Source: a virus
Lineage: Duplodnaviria > Caudoviricetes
Length of the DNA: 64,000 nucleotides
Virus record (IMG/VR): IMGVR_UViG_3300012983_000001
Coordinates: 128,001 to 192,000 of that record
Reading direction: 5' to 3' (one strand)
In this document: one piece after another, positions 56,900 to 63,025 of the stretch
How positions within the stretch are numbered: the first letter of the stretch is position 1
Layout: each line of letters starts with the position of its first letter
The notes under the pieces: model-generated
Database searches by the model: none
Seen by the model: only the letters and a program-made list of their open reading frames with translations
Told to the model about the DNA's origin: nothing
Position numbers and translations under genes: made by a program

Positions 56900-57076
56900 C
56901 TATTCCTTATTAAAGTCTACTTTAAATAGAAACTGCTTAACCTCTTCGAACTCAAAGTTATGTACATCCCCAAGGACTTCTTTGACATGGTTATAAGCTG
57001 CAAGTAAATTTACATGATTGTCCTGAGAATATCGAAATGTCATTTCTGACACTTCTTCAAGTTCCAGATTTCTCAT
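56900..57076 (-). CDS. Small hypothetical protein (58 aa)
   Basis: Below the ORF-track cutoff; MRNLELEEVSEMTFRYSQ...VDFNKE; SD AGGAGGT and its own promoter. Confidence 0.7.
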   Translation of the reverse strand: MRNLELEEVSEMTFRYSQDNHVNLLAAYNHVKEVLGDVHNFEFEEVKQFLFKVDFNKE

Positions 57077-57145: not shown

Positions 57146-57192
57146 CGGACCGTAGGTCCGTTTTGTTATGGTTGTATCGGGCCGTAGGCCCG
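57146..57192. repeat. Two 15-bp palindromes CGG(A/G)CC-GTA-GG(T/C)CCG, 32 bp apart
   Basis: 57146-57160 and 57178-57192, with a compensatory A-T to G-C change between copies. Confidence 0.85.
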
Positions 57193-57427: not shown

Positions 57428-57874
57428 ATGAAGAAACATGAGAAAAGATACCATGAAGTAGTTAGTAACAAAGTAGCAAGTGTATATGTTCAGGAGTTTT
57501 ATTTTCCAAAGTTTAGAACATTCACAGATGGCACAGATACTATTGAAACACAGTACACTGAGAATATCAGTATTTGTGTAGGTAAGAGTAGACGTGCTAA
57601 TAATGATTGGTTCAATGGTGATAAGACTGGAGATAAGATACACAATAAATCTACAGGTAATATCGCTACATTCATGAGTATCGTTGATACCTTGACACTG
57701 CATATCCTTGAGTTCCATCACATCTATGGATACTACTGTTGTACATTCACCCCTACTGATGATAAGAGACGTAAGACCTATCTTAAGGCTATCAAGCATC
57801 TGTGTAGGGAGTGCTATCTCACATTCAAGTATGTAATATGTGATGATAACGAACTAATGATATGGATTGAATAA
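57428..57874 (+). CDS. Early hypothetical protein
   Basis: ATG 57428 with SD GGAGGA; first plus-strand gene. Confidence 0.7.
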   Translation: MKKHEKRYHEVVSNKVASVYVQEFYFPKFRTFTDGTDTIETQYTENISICVGKSRRANNDWFNGDKTGDKIHNKSTGNIATFMSIVDTLTLHILEFHHIYGYYCCTFTPTDDKRRKTYLKAIKHLCRECYLTFKYVICDDNELMIWIE

Positions 57875-58093: not shown

Positions 58094-58120
58094 TGTCCTG
58101 AGCATGACAATAAAAGGCTC
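58094..58120 (+). ncRNA. H-type pseudoknot motif, copy 1
   Basis: S1 TGTC/GACA, S2 GAGC/GCTC, A-rich loop 3. Confidence 0.6.
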
Positions 58121-58184
58121 TCTCCTCTGGGGGAGACTAAATAGGCAGTTAGGCCCAGAGCGTTAGTAGAAATACTAGGTCTGC
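58121..58184 (+). ncRNA. Pistol self-cleaving ribozyme
   Basis: TCTCC TCTGGG GGAGA CTAAATA G GCAG TTAGG CCCAGA GCG TTAGTA GAAA TACTAG GT CTGC. P1, 6-bp pseudoknot, P2, P3 and the conserved AAAUA, GCG and GU are all present. Predicted cut G58179/U58180. Confidence 0.93.
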
Positions 58185-58240
58185 ACACAACAAAAAATAA
58201 AATAAAGACCCATGTGTAGAGGGCAGATTGGAGAAACCAT

Positions 58241-58510
58241 ATGAGTTATCAGATGAACAACCAGGAAAACGAAGCTATGAGACAGTACAGCTACAGAGAA
58301 CGTAGTCGTATAGCAAGAGAGAAAAAGAGACAGGAATTTATCTCTAACTTTATTGCTGTTGTAGTAGGTGTACTCATGATGCTTGCATTTGCGTATGCAT
58401 TCGTATATGCACTTGCTAATGAACCGTTTAATGCACCTGTTGCTAATCCAGCGTACATAAACGAGTATGAAACACCAGATGTACCAAGATACATCTACCC
58501 TGAAGAGTAG
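58241..58510 (+). CDS. Small single-TM membrane protein flanked by two ribozymes
   Basis: Basic patch followed by FIAVVVGVLMMLAFAYAFVYALA. Confidence 0.7.
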   Translation: MSYQMNNQENEAMRQYSYRERSRIAREKKRQEFISNFIAVVVGVLMMLAFAYAFVYALANEPFNAPVANPAYINEYETPDVPRYIYPEE

Positions 58511-58517
58511 TACTACA

Positions 58518-58592
58518 TGCAGAGTGGCATAGGGACTGTACATCCCTATGTTAATGCACTATCCCATATAGGGATACTGGTCACAAGTCCAG
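58518..58592 (+). ncRNA. Twister ribozyme, circularly permuted (P5-type order)
   Basis: TGCA-GAGTG, P1 hairpin GCATAGGGA/TCCCTATGT, TAA-TGCAC, P3 TATCCC/GGGATA, P4 CTGG-TCACAAGT-CCAG; T1 CAC/GTG, T2 AC/GT. P2/T2 is 1 nt shorter than consensus. Predicted cut U58552/A58553. Confidence 0.75.
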
Positions 58593-58623
58593 GTGCAAAT
58601 ATAATCCTAAGGAGGATAAGGTT

Positions 58624-59298
58624 ATGAAGATTAAGAATCTGTATTATGGCATTATCGGTCTTATTGCTTACTACAAGCAGACCAAGGCAAACAAGGTTAA
58701 TCTTAAGGCTACTAAAGCTAATAAGGTTGACGTAGTAACTGTTGATGATAGGGAATTAAGTATTCACTACATCCCTGACATGAATAAGCGTGGTGTTGCA
58801 TATGGAGCAATCTTTGTTTTCCCACATCTTGACAAAAAGACATTCATCGGTGTGGATGACAAATTCTATGCATTACCGCAGGAATTACAACAGGCAGTGA
58901 TTTACCATGAGGTAGGGCATTATGCACATGGTCACTTTAGTAACAAGGGGTTCCGCTATATCTGGCAACAGTGTGTACAGTTAGGCAAGATTGCTGTTGC
59001 TTCTGAAGACCAGAAGGCTAACCTGTTATACGAGTTTACCATGATGACTCGTAATGACAACGAGGAGTATGAAGCAGATGCCTATGCAGTTAATAAGGTA
59101 GGAGCTCATGCTGTTGCTGCTTTGCTCTTAACGTTCTATAGCTTGTACCCTAGTGAGGAACTTGCTATCAGATATCAAAAGGTTACTGGTGAAGCAATCG
59201 AAACAAGTAGTGCTTTTCTGGAGCTTAAGAAACAAATGGCACAACAATTTACTTCTATCTTTAAGGATGCTGAAGTAGTATCCATTGAGACTTTATAA
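58624..59298 (+). CDS. Zinc metalloprotease (M48/M56-like zincin)
   Basis: AVIYHEVGH and EYEADAYA motifs. Confidence 0.8.
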   Translation: MKIKNLYYGIIGLIAYYKQTKANKVNLKATKANKVDVVTVDDRELSIHYIPDMNKRGVAYGAIFVFPHLDKKTFIGVDDKFYALPQELQQAVIYHEVGHYAHGHFSNKGFRYIWQQCVQLGKIAVASEDQKANLLYEFTMMTRNDNEEYEADAYAVNKVGAHAVAALLLTFYSLYPSEELAIRYQKVTGEAIETSSAFLELKKQMAQQFTSIFKDAEVVSIETL

Positions 59299-59321
59299 AC
59301 CTAGATTACATTAAGGAAAGG

Positions 59322-59951
59322 ATGGTAGTTATGATGAACACTACAACAAACAAGGTATTGGAGAAACTAGTAAACGCAGGCGCACTGGAAAGAATCGCAA
59401 AGGACTTAAAGCTAGACAAGGTTCCAACTATTGTATATGACGGAGAAGGTGATTACGTCATGGCAGCGTCTGGACAAGTATGGGCTCGTGGTAATCTGTT
59501 CCATGAAACAGTTACAAAGACTGAAAGTGACTATGTTATTCATGTCAACACCAAGGCCTTAGCTGATACTCAGAGACAGTATTGTATGCTGACTTTAAAC
59601 CCTCAGATTATGACAGACATTACACTGATATTACTGAAACACGAATGCCGTCATATCTGGCAATATCAGAATCAGTTCACGGTTGGTGATGTTCGCGAAA
59701 AATTCTCTTTTCGTTTAGAAGCTCATGGAGATTCCAAGGTAGAGCGTGATGCAAACGAGTACGCAGTACAGAAAAGCAAAGGCAGACGCTATATCTTAGC
59801 TCTTCATGCAAAAATGTTACAAGAGAAAAACCCATTCTCATTTGGACCTTCTACAGAAGAGATACATTTAAACCATGAGGTAATGCGTGCGTATTTTCCT
59901 ATTGCACATTACATAATCAATAAACTTACAGGAGGTAAGAAATATGTATAA
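59322..59951 (+). CDS. Zinc metalloprotease-like protein (HExxH)
   Basis: LLKHECRHIWQY and VERDANEYA. Confidence 0.75.
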   Translation: MVVMMNTTTNKVLEKLVNAGALERIAKDLKLDKVPTIVYDGEGDYVMAASGQVWARGNLFHETVTKTESDYVIHVNTKALADTQRQYCMLTLNPQIMTDITLILLKHECRHIWQYQNQFTVGDVREKFSFRLEAHGDSKVERDANEYAVQKSKGRRYILALHAKMLQEKNPFSFGPSTEEIHLNHEVMRAYFPIAHYIINKLTGGKKYV

Positions 59952-60258
59952 GATTAGTCAAATTGTACAGGACTGTGTCAACGGTTGCACTGCAAACAAT
60001 CTCATCGAAGACTACATGCATTTCATGATTAACTATTATGTTAATACTGAACATGGTCAGGGTACCAAGTATCGTTGTTTCGTATACAACATACAAGACT
60101 TAGAGGTCAATCTCTATCATATTATTAGAGAAAATATCTCTCCTACTACTGATGTTGTTATTACAGACATCACCGTAAAAGACAGTGGCGAAATCATTCG
60201 TGTGAACCCTAAGAATTATTCTTACAGCATGGACTATTTCATGGATATGCTTCGTTAA
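59944..60258 (+). CDS. Early hypothetical protein
   Basis: SD AGGAGGT; overlaps the upstream stop. Confidence 0.65.
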   Translation: MYKISQIVQDCVNGCTANNLIEDYMHFMINYYVNTEHGQGTKYRCFVYNIQDLEVNLYHIIRENISPTTDVVITDITVKDSGEIIRVNPKNYSYSMDYFMDMLR

Positions 60259-60260
60259 TC

Positions 60261-60316
60261 ATCTTCTATTCTTTGAGGGCATCACAATGAGTGGTGTCCT
60301 TTCTAGTGTAGAAGAT
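60261..60316 (+). other. Long bulged stem-loop (RNase III-like processing site candidate)
   Basis: ATCTTCTA/TAGAAGAT lower stem, internal loop, GAGGGCATCAC/GTGGTGTCCTT upper stem; no U-tract. Confidence 0.55.
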
Positions 60317-60346
60317 ACACTAATTCACTATAAGGAGGTGAGCAAT

Positions 60347-60499
60347 ATGACTACTACTTATACCAAGCACACACCAACAAAAGAACCTAAGAAAACATAT
60401 AATAACCATGCTAGTTTTGGTTTTTATCTTAGAACTGGTGTGCCATACAATCCTCGTATGAGCGAGAGAGAAAAGAAGGCTTTAATAAGCCGCAGATAG
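60347..60499 (+). CDS. Small basic early protein (50 aa)
   Basis: SD AAGGAGGTG before MTTTYTK; the upstream ATG in the track lies inside the hairpin. Confidence 0.65.
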   Translation: MTTTYTKHTPTKEPKKTYNNHASFGFYLRTGVPYNPRMSEREKKALISRR

Positions 60500-60504
60500 C
60501 ACTG

Positions 60505-60533
60505 GGTCCTGGAGTATGACCTAAAACTGCTTC
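60505..60533 (+). ncRNA. H-type pseudoknot motif, copy 2
   Basis: S1 GGTC/GACC, S2 GGAGTA/TGCTTC, loop TAAAAC. Confidence 0.6.
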
Positions 60534-60576
60534 TGTTACCAGTAAACATCCTAACATGGATTGGAGGTGATACGCC

Positions 60577-60753
60577 ATGGATGTTGATATTACACTGTCT
60601 AGTATAGCTGTGACTTATATTAAGCATGGACTTATGAGACAAGAAGAACTGGAAGGACATAAAGACCTTCTAAAAGACTGCTTGAATAGACGCGCGATTC
60701 AAGTATTTAACAACGGCCACGAGTACGATACTCGCAAAGACTATTTTCTCTAA
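60577..60753 (+). CDS. Small early protein (58 aa)
   Basis: Below the track cutoff; SD GGAGGTGA; MDVDITLSSIAVTYIKHG...RKDYFL. Confidence 0.7.
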   Translation: MDVDITLSSIAVTYIKHGLMRQEELEGHKDLLKDCLNRRAIQVFNNGHEYDTRKDYFL

Positions 60754-60769
60754 GAAAGAGGTGTAGGTC

Positions 60770-61840
60770 ATGGAAGTATTAAATGTATACGTTGGCAAAG
60801 AACAGGTAAAGTTCGATTTAGGTAATCTATTGGGTGTTGATGTAGAGATATGGGATAAGCTTACATATCAGACTGCAAAGAAACATCAAGATTTAATTCC
60901 TGCGATTGAGATATGTATCGAGGATTGCCTTGGTACTGCGGTAAATATCGTAGATGAGGTTAGTTTTAAACTAGCCATTGCTGATTTAGTGAACATTATC
61001 CAAGGTGATAATGCAATAAATATTAAGGAGGATACTATTATGATGAACAACACTACTAACCAGAACATGGAAATGGCAATGGAAGAGATGCAGAAGAAGG
61101 CAGGCATCGGAGAATTACTCAAAGAAACAAAGGATGCAGTTATCCACGGAGTAATTTCTAAGACACACAAGACTAAGGAACAGTACGTACAGCAGGTTGA
61201 TGAATCTGCTAACGTGGTTAAGGGTGCAATGGTTGTTACTCTTGACAAGATGTCCGCAGTGCTTGGTTACAATGCTCTAAAGGAAAGTATCTTAGGCATC
61301 ATTGAAGCAGGTACTTGTAATGGCAAGACTGATTTATTCGCAATGGCCGAGGAATGCAGAAAGCGTATTGACCTTGAGGTTGAGACACTTCTTGCATGGG
61401 GTAGCGAAGAAGATTTCAGAAAGGCTGCACAGTTAAAAGCTTTATCTAAAGACCAGAGAGGCAAGTCTATCTTTGAAGCTTTAGTATCCATGTTAATTTG
61501 GATTGCTAAATGGGTAGCTAAGACACTCAGAAAATGGTTCCAGGTAGACAATGAGAAATCCATTATTGGTGCTCTTTGCCGTGCTCTTTCTGGTTTTGCT
61601 GCTGTGGTACGTGAAGGCGTTAAGTTAGTATGGCACACTGCAAAGTTTGGTGTAAGCTTTGTAATTGCTGGCGCTATTAAGCTTGGCGTGTGGATTATCA
61701 ATACATTTAAGACTTTCTGTGAAGGCATCAAAGGATGGTTTAACAAGAAGAATGAAATGATTGATGATGAGGAAGACCAGTTCTTCTTTGTTGCAGATGA
61801 AGAGGGCAATCTTGTAATTCCTGACGAAGACGAAGAATAA
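60770..61840 (+). CDS. Early hypothetical protein with amphipathic helices and acidic tail
   Basis: 356 aa; in-frame internal SD/ATG at 61040. Confidence 0.75.
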   Translation: MEVLNVYVGKEQVKFDLGNLLGVDVEIWDKLTYQTAKKHQDLIPAIEICIEDCLGTAVNIVDEVSFKLAIADLVNIIQGDNAINIKEDTIMMNNTTNQNMEMAMEEMQKKAGIGELLKETKDAVIHGVISKTHKTKEQYVQQVDESANVVKGAMVVTLDKMSAVLGYNALKESILGIIEAGTCNGKTDLFAMAEECRKRIDLEVETLLAWGSEEDFRKAAQLKALSKDQRGKSIFEALVSMLIWIAKWVAKTLRKWFQVDNEKSIIGALCRALSGFAAVVREGVKLVWHTAKFGVSFVIAGAIKLGVWIINTFKTFCEGIKGWFNKKNEMIDDEEDQFFFVADEEGNLVIPDEDEE

Positions 61841-61850
61841 TCGTCACTAC

Positions 61851-61891
61851 TAGTCCAATGGGTGTGTAAGACTATAAACTGCTATCACCCA
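61851..61891 (+). ncRNA. H-type pseudoknot motif, copy 3 (extended S2)
   Basis: S1 TAGTC/GACTA, S2 TGGGTG/CACCCA plus GTA/TGC, loop TAAAC. Confidence 0.6.
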
Positions 61892-61915
61892 TAACTACTA
61901 TACATATACATGAAC

Positions 61916-61974
61916 TATACTCCCTGGTGTTACTTGAATACGTTTACGGGTTATCTTTAACACCAGGGGGTATA
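61916..61974 (+). other. 17-bp stem-loop (RNase III-like candidate)
   Basis: TATACTCCCTGGTGTTA / TAACACCAGGGGGTATA with one G-U pair. Confidence 0.6.
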
Positions 61975-61998
61975 TGTATATATCCCACCTTAATGGTT

Positions 61999-62054
61999 TG
62001 CTGTCGTAGCGGTAAAAGTCCGTTACCTGATGATTGGCATGAGCCGAAACAGCA
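61999..62054 (+). ncRNA. Hammerhead ribozyme, type III
   Basis: TGCTG-TC-GTAGCGG TAAAAGT CCGTTAC-CTGATGA-TT-GGC ATGA GCC-GAAA-CAGCA. GUC triplet, cut after C62005; 2-nt insertion before stem II. Confidence 0.88.
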
Positions 62055-62152
62055 TCAGAGATTCTCACGCGGGGATGGTAAGGATAACATCGTTAAGACT
62101 TCCAAACACTATAAACTATTTTATGGGTTGATAACCCAGAAAGGAGTATAGC

Positions 62153-63025
62153 ATGAAACAGAAAACAACTACTAGTCATGCAAAGAAGGCGACTACTACA
62201 AGTAACGCCAAGACCGCAACCAACAACCAGAACACTACACAGGAGGTAGCTACTATGAAGAACGCAAACGTACACGCAACTGATTATTTATCCAAGGATA
62301 AGATTCGTGAAGAACTTAAAGTGCTCGGTATTGAGTTATCCAACTCTAAGTTCAAGAACACCAAGAGAGAAGTATTACTTGAGATGCTTGAAGCTAAGAA
62401 GGCAGAGACTACTACTGCTAATGCAACTAAGCCTGCTATGCCAATTGCACCTGTATCTACTGACATTCCTGTTGGTGATTTAGAGATTACCAAAGACAAT
62501 GCTCCTCAGGAGATTCCAGTAGAACAGGAACAACCGAAAAAGAGCACCGTACAGATTCTCTACGATGTAGTTGCTAACTGCTGTTACGTACAGTATTACA
62601 GCAAGAAGCAGGTTGCTAAGAACTATGTCAGCGATTATATGTTGAAGTCCTGTATTAACCATGTACTTCACGGCAAGTACTCCAAGGAAAAGAATGGACA
62701 GGATAATACATTCACGGATATTCAGCAGAAGCAGACCGAGTTCATTAAGGATAAGTTAATCCAGGCTGGTTTTGTTACCGAACATAAGGGTACAGGTTAT
62801 ATCATCAAGGCAAGACTCATGGCATGGTACTACGAGGGAGCTCTGAAGCTTCATGTTGTTTACAGATTCCGCTACGAAGATAAGTCCAAGGGCTATGTAG
62901 ACTACAAGGTAGACTTTGCTAAGAACGAGCTGCTTAATCTCCGTGACAACAAGGTTACCAAGCTGGATGATGCAGGCTGGGCTAAGGTTGATGCAACTCT
63001 CAACTTCAACAGAACTATGAAATAA
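62153..63025 (+). CDS. Early protein with HeH/Rho-N-like nucleic-acid-binding motif
   Basis: LSKDKIREELKVLGI...TKREVLLEML; SD AAAGGAG; second in-frame SD/ATG at 62255. Confidence 0.7.
   Translation: MKQKTTTSHAKKATTTSNAKTATNNQNTTQEVATMKNANVHATDYLSKDKIREELKVLGIELSNSKFKNTKREVLLEMLEAKKAETTTANATKPAMPIAPVSTDIPVGDLEITKDNAPQEIPVEQEQPKKSTVQILYDVVANCCYVQYYSKKQVAKNYVSDYMLKSCINHVLHGKYSKEKNGQDNTFTDIQQKQTEFIKDKLIQAGFVTEHKGTGYIIKARLMAWYYEGALKLHVVYRFRYEDKSKGYVDYKVDFAKNELLNLRDNKVTKLDDAGWAKVDATLNFNRTMK

Follow-up and report, generated by a model that had tools for sequence, protein, structure and literature searches.

Analysis of a 64-kb stretch of a viral genome (bases 128001–192000 of a 208,433-bp record with direct terminal repeats; hereafter, the window) revealed three self-cleaving ribozyme motifs of different classes, namely a pistol, a type-P5 twister, and a variant type III hammerhead, in the gaps of a single plus-strand gene block. 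On balance, and with modest confidence, we think it probable that this non-structural block is transcribed through three active ribozymes and cuts itself into four pieces, which would uncouple neighboring cistrons. The three elements are the following:

58121–58184, plus strand: pistol ribozyme (RF02679), predicted cut G58179/U58180
58518–58592, plus strand: type-P5 twister ribozyme with the optional P3 hairpin (RF02684), predicted cut U58552/A58553
61999–62054, plus strand: type III hammerhead variant, predicted cut 62005/06, recognized by a descriptor match and by covariation across 39 sequences

All of them are intergenic, lie on the coding strand within 3.9 kb, and are the sole ribozymes found in the 208-kb genome; by simple arithmetic, the chance that three sites fall inside 3.9 kb of 208 kb is ~1e-3. 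A sequence-only reading of the window had described such an intergenic, coding-strand array within 4 kb, and the gene calls, which place all three elements in plus-strand gaps, agreed with it.

At the Rfam gathering thresholds, exactly two ribozymes were reported in the window, the pistol and the twister-P5, and the Rfam scan of the rest of the genome yielded no further ribozyme, only tRNAs. The pistol scored 44.7 bits against a gathering threshold of 34.5 (E 6e-5 for the 64-kb window), and the twister 47.1 bits against 37.6 (E 1e-6). In the model alignment, the pistol has P1, P2, P3, and the pseudoknot joining the P1 loop to the P2–P3 junction, with G58179-U58180 unpaired. This 6-bp pseudoknot, UCUGGG (58126–31)/CCCAGA (58154–59), covaries with ACUAGG/CCUAGU in the related phages L023 and L025. 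The twister has a closed P1, both P2 and P4, the T1 and T2 loop contacts, and U-A at the UAA cleavage site. Its T1 contact is GUG/CAC, as against GGG/CCC in the copies of the relative L028, and its T2 contact is AC/GU, as against GC/GC in one L028 copy. The bonds 58179/80 and 58552/53, which had been picked out from the letters of the window, coincide with the G-U dinucleotide and the U-A site of the respective models.

The third class had to be recognized by other means. Although Infernal searches with the Rfam models recovered the pistol and the twister-P5 above gathering, the hammerhead models did not report the remaining site at E<=10 in scans of 7.5 kb, of 312 nt, and of the whole genome. 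Stem III pairs 61999–62004 with 62049–54, and U62004 is followed by C17 (62005) at the cut. Stem I comprises 7 bp (62006–12/62020–26) with loop 1 UAAAAGU, the core consists of CUGAUGA (62027–33) and GAAA (62046–49), and stem II has 3 bp (GGC/GCC, 62036–38/62043–45) with loop 2 AUGA; an A15.1-U16.1 pair and a non-G at position 17 are also present. An extra UU at 62034–35 interrupts the core between A9 and G10.1. Since natural active hammerheads with core insertions exist (PMC3088659, PMC3705267), the site is filed as a hammerhead variant despite the interrupted core. A type III descriptor allowing the insertion matched only this site in 208 kb on both strands, and the same descriptor gave any match in 1 of 150 first-order random genomes (~0.007 expected by chance). 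When set against the tertiary-contact motif between loops 1 and 2 of natural type III hammerheads (loop 1 U-N-Y-N, loop 2 R-Nn-A), loop 2 fits; loop 1 begins with the expected 5' U, but the 3' pyrimidine stands in the last position and not in the penultimate one (PMC2632901). A match of the first hammerhead core pattern in L012 was discarded as a chance occurrence in GC-rich sequence with no stems.

Further members of the subfamily were retrieved with a pattern on the two loops and the core, the stem positions being left free. The pattern found 56 loci (15 viral and 41 metagenomic), many on 90–160 kb gut and rumen phage contigs, corresponding to 39 distinct sequences, i.e., 38 distinct relatives of the window copy. 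Loops UAAAAGU and AUGA were invariant in the 39 sequences, partly since the search pattern fixed both. In the alignment, 93.2% of the cells were paired, compared with 28–44% when the partners were slid; 13 of the 18 pairs showed compensatory change with both sides altered, and the observed score was reached by none of 500 shuffles. This covariation backs three helices, with stems I and II closed and stem III open, and the related phages carry the same hammerhead with compensatory changes in all three stems. Thus, being the sole descriptor match in the genome and covarying over 39 sequences, the type III hammerhead proposed with a cut at 62005/06 was upheld. RF00008 detected one of the five carrier genomes (L042), at 23 bits against a gathering threshold of 48.5, and the match was the variant site itself. 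Judged from these sequences, the absent Rfam match is a gap in model coverage and not evidence against the hammerhead.

The norm of the subfamily is one unpaired nucleotide between A9 and G10.1, whereas two are present in the window phage, in L027, and in L013. It is quite unlikely, in our judgment, that the window copy is a decaying, inactive relic owing to its second inserted U, so that the pistol and the twister alone cut. The missing Rfam match would suit this explanation, as would an alternative stem II pairing that sequesters G12/A13 and the strong loss of activity caused by two-nucleotide core insertions in another natural variant (PMC3088659). However, the UU form has been retained in three diverged lineages (the window, L027, and L013), and subfamily members have any of the bases at the inserted position, suggesting that this nucleotide is bulged out. 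In addition, the window and L013 hammerheads are identical at 53 of 56 positions (95%), and all three changes (3/3) are compensatory or otherwise keep the structure of stem I, as opposed to 170 of 223 positions (76%) in the flanking gap, which also contains 60 indel columns. Because the hammerhead identity exceeds that of the gap and the changes preserve structure, the two-U form is under purifying selection. Directly 3' of the hammerhead (62055–62100), the window phage and L027 alone carry an insert of ~45 nt that folds into small hairpins.

Other structured elements are interleaved with the ribozymes:

58094–58120, plus strand: H-type pseudoknot 1, post-stop (S1 58094–97/58106–09; S2 58100–03/58117–20), sharing its motif class with the other two copies
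60505–60533, plus strand: pseudoknot 2, post-stop (S1 60505–08/60518–21; S2 60511–14/60530–33)
61851–61892, plus strand: pseudoknot 3, post-stop (S1 61851–55/61870–74; S2 61859–64/61886–91)
61906–61983, plus strand: long hairpin with a 17-bp core (61916–32/61958–74), of conserved structure and different sequence in L011, L013, and L016
L011 7045; L013 4404 and 5745; L016 7313 and 8730; L027 732, 2932, and 3931: pseudoknot copies in relatives

The pseudoknots form a strand-specific family that starts about 5–15 nt past the stop codon of a long open reading frame (ORF), shares a GUCC...GAC-N-UAAAACUGCU-like sequence, and has no Rfam match. For the three window copies, the distance from the stop codon is 5–12 nt. 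Stem 2 covaries among the orthologs in L011, L013, L016, and L027. In pseudoknot 2, GGAG/CUUC is replaced by GGAU/AUCC among the orthologs of L013, L016, and L027; S2 of pseudoknot 3 occurs as GGGUG/CACCC, GAGUA/UACUC, GAGUG/CACUC, and GAAUG/CAUUC across the window, L011, L013, and L016. All three pseudoknots of the sequence-only reading were therefore present, with covarying orthologs. Of the two long stems that it had listed, the one at 61906–61983 was confirmed and is conserved, but a second was not identified inside the span. Its statement that nearly every gap over 50 nt holds a structured element also stood, as five of five such gaps contain at least one validated or conserved element. 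In four phages, the long hairpin lies directly 3' of pseudoknot 3 (L011 7098–7165 and the A-to-B gaps of L013 and L016 among them), and it would sit close to the 3' terminus of the fragment freed by the hammerhead cut.

The genes that matter for the predicted transcript units are as follows:

57428–57874, plus strand: K148, the first ORF of the block (148 amino acids, group K), also predicted as a gene in public assemblies of this phage (L017 1276–1722), with a homolog in L027
57898–58089, plus strand: L63, 63 amino acids, the last gene of predicted unit 1, with the upstream ribosome-binding site AAAGGAGG
58241–58510, plus strand: D89, an 89-amino-acid single-pass membrane protein, the sole gene between the pistol and twister cuts, with homologs in L027, L016, and L013
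58624–59298, plus strand: E224, HEVGH zinc-metallopeptidase-like, with an N-terminal hydrophobic segment
60770–61840, plus strand: A356, a conserved gene of the backbone, located upstream of the hammerhead gap
62153–63025, plus strand: B290, which opens the predicted unit downstream of the hammerhead cut

None of D89, E224, A356, and B290 was assigned above threshold to a Pfam, PHROG, or PADLOC family, and the PHROGs and PADLOC searches of the flanking genes gave nothing except one weak SspE-like match.

By analogy with known systems, the most plausible consequence of three such ribozymes would be the protein-free cutting of a multi-gene RNA. Co-transcriptional transesterification would sever the RNA at 58179/80, 58552/53, and 62005/06 and leave four pieces bearing 5'-OH and 2',3'-cyclic-phosphate ends. 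Unit 1 would comprise K148 and L63 and terminate in the pistol fold, whereas unit 2 would be a 373-nt monocistronic D89 RNA with the twister P1 hairpin at its end. Unit 3 (E224 to A356, about 3.45 kb) would start with twister P3/P4 and end just past the long hairpin, and unit 4, from B290 onwards, would begin flush with hammerhead stem I and carry stems I and II at its start. Stable helices remaining from the ribozymes would thus delimit each unit, and the cuts would uncouple the decay and translation of adjoining cistrons. Separately stabilized units, as proposed earlier for this locus, would fit the hairpins predicted at the new ends. Early expression of the block may be inferred from its position, its start being the point of divergence from the structural and terminase genes, with an RNA polymerase gene farther along.

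Several points weigh against such processing. In Firmicutes, a 5'-OH end may mark an RNA for decay by RNase J1, as in the glmS precedent. A single polycistronic transcript and its early timing are assumptions on our part, because the promoter and terminator scans were uninformative (the counts were at chance level, and promoter-like sites were not enriched). Between A9 and stem II of the hammerhead stand two unpaired U, as against one in the subfamily, the hammerhead's minimum free energy (MFE) fold lengthens stem II through G12/A13, and core insertions can reduce hammerhead activity (PMC3088659). Finally, the relatives L011/G001, L015, and L016 carry the same genes without ribozymes; as far as sequences can tell, the ribozymes are therefore dispensable.

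The predicted ends also bear on two other outcomes of cleavage. It is unlikely, though worth weighing, that the cuts serve to down-regulate, the 5'-OH ends being exposed to an RNase J1-type 5'-to-3' exonuclease that would lower downstream expression or end transcription torpedo-style. Such a fate would be consistent with the nearest cultured relative, which infects Bacillus, with the strong Shine-Dalgarno sites, and with a 7-nt single-stranded 5' tail on the twister 3' product. On the other hand, the hammerhead 3' product starts base-paired in stem I, the 5' end of the D89 fragment is paired in both the MFE and centroid folds, and essential-looking genes, including the RNA polymerase gene, lie past the cuts. 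We consider it highly improbable that the pistol–D89–twister cassette frees its 373-nt RNA for ligation of the ends by host RtcB, which would give a circular mRNA (or an end-protected panhandle). The predicted ends bear the right chemistry for ligation; furthermore, 58180–85 (UCUGCA) pairs with 58518–23 in the MFE and centroid folds, so that the 5'-OH adjoins the 3'-terminal P1 hairpin. Nevertheless, RtcB and an Rnl2-type ligase were searched for in the phage and were not found, and a second ORF lies inside the cassette in L027. The 6-nt complementarity, moreover, is that of the twister consensus GCAGAG and pistol P2 (GCAG/CUGC), and the L028 pistol shares this P2 in a different arrangement. 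Circular or spliced products were sought by Perreault et al. in similar arrays, and none was detected (PMC3088659). If true, the phage would encode, and its ribozymes would make, a circular mRNA specifying a small membrane protein. As for its layout, the cassette may be compared with Tornado, an engineered twister-flanked circularization cassette in which the freed RNA has 5'-OH and 2',3'-cyclic-phosphate ends and is held by a stem. Here too ribozymes lie on both sides of an RNA whose ends are predicted to be held by a stem, although the arrangement is natural and the stem has only 6 bp.

The related phages were reached via protein searches; cultured phages yielded no blastn match to the 4.4-kb span, and no relatives emerged when metagenomes were scanned with the A356 alignment. 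In the gene orders below, letters denote homology groups and numbers amino acids, with P for pistol, T for twister-P5, HH2 for type II hammerhead, and HH3v for the variant type III hammerhead.

Window: K148, L63, P, D89, T, E224, M206, C104, F70, A58, A356, HH3v, B290, G137
L027: the window order plus one additional ORF (N109), placed after D89 and before the twister; three ribozymes
L013: HH3v only
L023, L025: one pistol, before the unrelated gene H131
L011/G001, L015, L016: no ribozymes
L028 (also L064): 185, HH2, P95, T, E214, M222, T, A364, HH3v, 187, P, O309; about 4.2 kb with five ribozymes

In L027 and L028, the E224 homolog has a twister directly upstream; that of L016 does not. In L028 (1413–1485) and L064 (3024–3093, minus strand), the copy directly upstream of E214 is a textbook twister-P5. 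The batch Rfam scan at gathering thresholds overlooked this L028 twister; batch scans thus undercount ribozymes, and the absences in the other relatives are lower bounds, although regex and descriptor rescans of the relatives gave no further copies. In the A-to-B gap, the hammerhead forms a discrete module of ~60 nt within a conserved scaffold (pseudoknot, long hairpin, and ribosome-binding-site region), from which it is cleanly missing in L016 and L011. From these comparisons, the ribozymes appear to be accessory modules that are gained and lost independently of the genes. Equivalent gaps without a ribozyme hold nothing or an unrelated hairpin, as in the D-to-E gap of L016. At the place of the window's twister, L016 (5887–6000) has unrelated sequence of similar length with a ~24-bp hairpin (z = -2.2), which could be another structured element or a remnant.

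Such a pattern raises a possible, if rather unlikely, explanation in which the ribozymes are passenger modules, that is, small inserts that spread horizontally, cleave without regulatory benefit, and persist since cuts between cistrons are nearly neutral. It would account for the hammerhead being a clean indel of ~60 nt in an otherwise conserved gap, for the sporadic distribution among syntenic relatives, and for near-identical hammerhead cores in unrelated 90–160 kb gut and rumen phage contigs. It would also agree with the cultured relative 0305phi8-36, in which no pistol, twister-P5, or variant hammerhead was found. However, the catalytic fold is still under selection, as shown by the compensatory changes and by a divergence below that of the flanks, and the ribozymes invariably lie between genes on the coding strand. 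We also know of no mobility mechanism for DNA-encoded ribozymes of 60 nt, which further counts against this explanation.

Two expectations about the mixture of classes did not survive the comparison. No gap of the relatives was seen to have exchanged one ribozyme class for another; the relatives differed in presence or absence only, with 0 to 5 ribozymes per locus. The suggestion that unrelated classes are used to avoid recombination between repeats was contradicted by L028, where two twisters and two hammerheads stand in one array. Other phages pair HH3v with two twister-sister ribozymes, which is further evidence against that idea, and triple-hammerhead arrays have already been published. 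The twister-sister pairs lie on one strand with HH3v in unrelated gut phage contigs of ~140 kb (L033/L059 and L069), and HEARO RNA is also found on L033 and L059. The elements on those contigs are as follows:

L033: 3443–3522, 5658–5737, and 10940–11153
L069: 7609–7688 and 10483–10564

In the wider genome, a long structural and packaging block on the minus strand ends near 57.1 kb, and the plus-strand block, made up of small genes of unknown function, runs from 57428 to the RNA polymerase gene just past the window end. The host is likely of the Firmicutes type, to judge from the sequence, because the terminase-like protein shares 47% identity with its counterpart in the Bacillus jumbo phage 0305phi8-36 and the genes are preceded by strong AGGAGG-type Shine-Dalgarno ribosome-binding sites. 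The polymerase-like protein has 1279 amino acids and matches Rho_N and PF05183 (RdRP/YonO-like two-barrel RNA polymerase); it is encoded on the same strand at about 65172–69011 (L017 9020–12859) and is kept in the relatives L013, L015, and L016. The divergent region before the plus-strand block contains a plus-strand promoter-like site, TTGACA-17-TAAATT (56982–57010), and, ~140 nt on, a terminator-like hairpin with a T-run (57146–57160), which could be a small RNA. The octamer TATAAACT occurs nine times on the plus strand and not once on the minus strand of the whole genome, with two copies in the hammerhead gap (61875 and 62112). Its candidacy as an internal promoter was dropped, as only three copies are intergenic despite the 9-to-0 strand bias; a string resembling it lies before the variant hammerhead of the unrelated phage L042. 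ARAGORN reported, among the 15 tRNAs of the phage, one of 95 nt with a four-base anticodon (ttag) and no amino acid assigned (L009 14228–14322; genome 206028–206122). It scored 45.2 bits with the Rfam tRNA model and could be quadruplet-decoding, a suppressor, or intron-bearing.

Clusters of ribozymes flanking single phage genes were described by Perreault et al. in 2011, who proposed the processing of long transcripts into single-gene mRNAs; the published arrays cleave in vitro and in E. coli (PMC3088659). As in those prophage clusters, several coding-strand ribozymes here flank single genes or short blocks within about 2–4 kb, and gene identities vary (PMC3088659). The present locus has three coding-strand ribozymes flanking single genes or short blocks that differ among genomes, and thus belongs with these clusters. 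Unlike them, however, the array mixes three classes, resides in a 208-kb lytic-type jumbo phage and not in a prophage, and is known from sequence alone. Reviews likewise point out that ribozyme classes are found near one another and near phage genes, and the processing of polycistronic RNA has been proposed there (PMC4604425, PMC6765202). According to what these reviews relate of Weinberg et al. (2015), such ribozyme-associated neighborhoods yielded the pistol, hatchet, and twister-sister classes (PMC4604425, PMC6765202). The window resembles the neighborhoods so summarized in that classes co-locate with phage genes, the pistol being prevalent in Firmicutes and phage DNA, but differs from them, as summarized, in that the flanking genes (D89, E224, and A356/B290) match no Pfam, PHROG, or PADLOC family above threshold. 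The three ribozymes of the sequence-only reading are thus real, but the RNA-encoded processing of polycistronic RNA that it offered as a candidate system is not novel, the hypothesis having already been published (PMC3088659 section 6; PMC6765202).

Core-insertion hammerheads have also been described. In the haloviruses HF1/HF2, the 5' end of an early polycistronic transcript was mapped within 3 nt of the cut of the hammerhead HHphage, likewise a core-insertion variant in a phage transcript (PMC3088659). The HHphage insertion adjoins C3/stem I, and that ribozyme needs high salt (PMC3088659), whereas the insertion here lies between A9 and G10.1. The (+) hammerhead in CChMVd (chrysanthemum chlorotic mottle viroid) tolerates an extra unpaired core nucleotide, and like it and natural type III hammerheads, the window copy is of type III, with a U-initial heptaloop as loop 1 and R-Nn-A in loop 2 (PMC3705267; PMC2632901). 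It differs from the CChMVd ribozyme in having one (subfamily) or two (this phage) extra nucleotides and a stem II of only 3 bp. The extra A of CChMVd is positioned next to A9.

In conclusion, the array is a further example of an arrangement described since 2011 and no new kind of system; modestly new are a hammerhead subfamily that is unannotated in Rfam and a natural presence/absence series among syntenic jumbo-phage relatives. The variant hammerhead is common in gut and rumen phage contigs and invisible at the Rfam gathering thresholds, and the ribozyme density of phages is therefore underestimated. For the question of what self-cleaving ribozymes do in bacteria and phages, the locus offers a compact natural test case, with three classes in one operon, one single-gene cassette (D89) bounded by two different classes, and, as a natural control set, syntenic relatives in which these genes are accompanied by 0 to 5 ribozymes.

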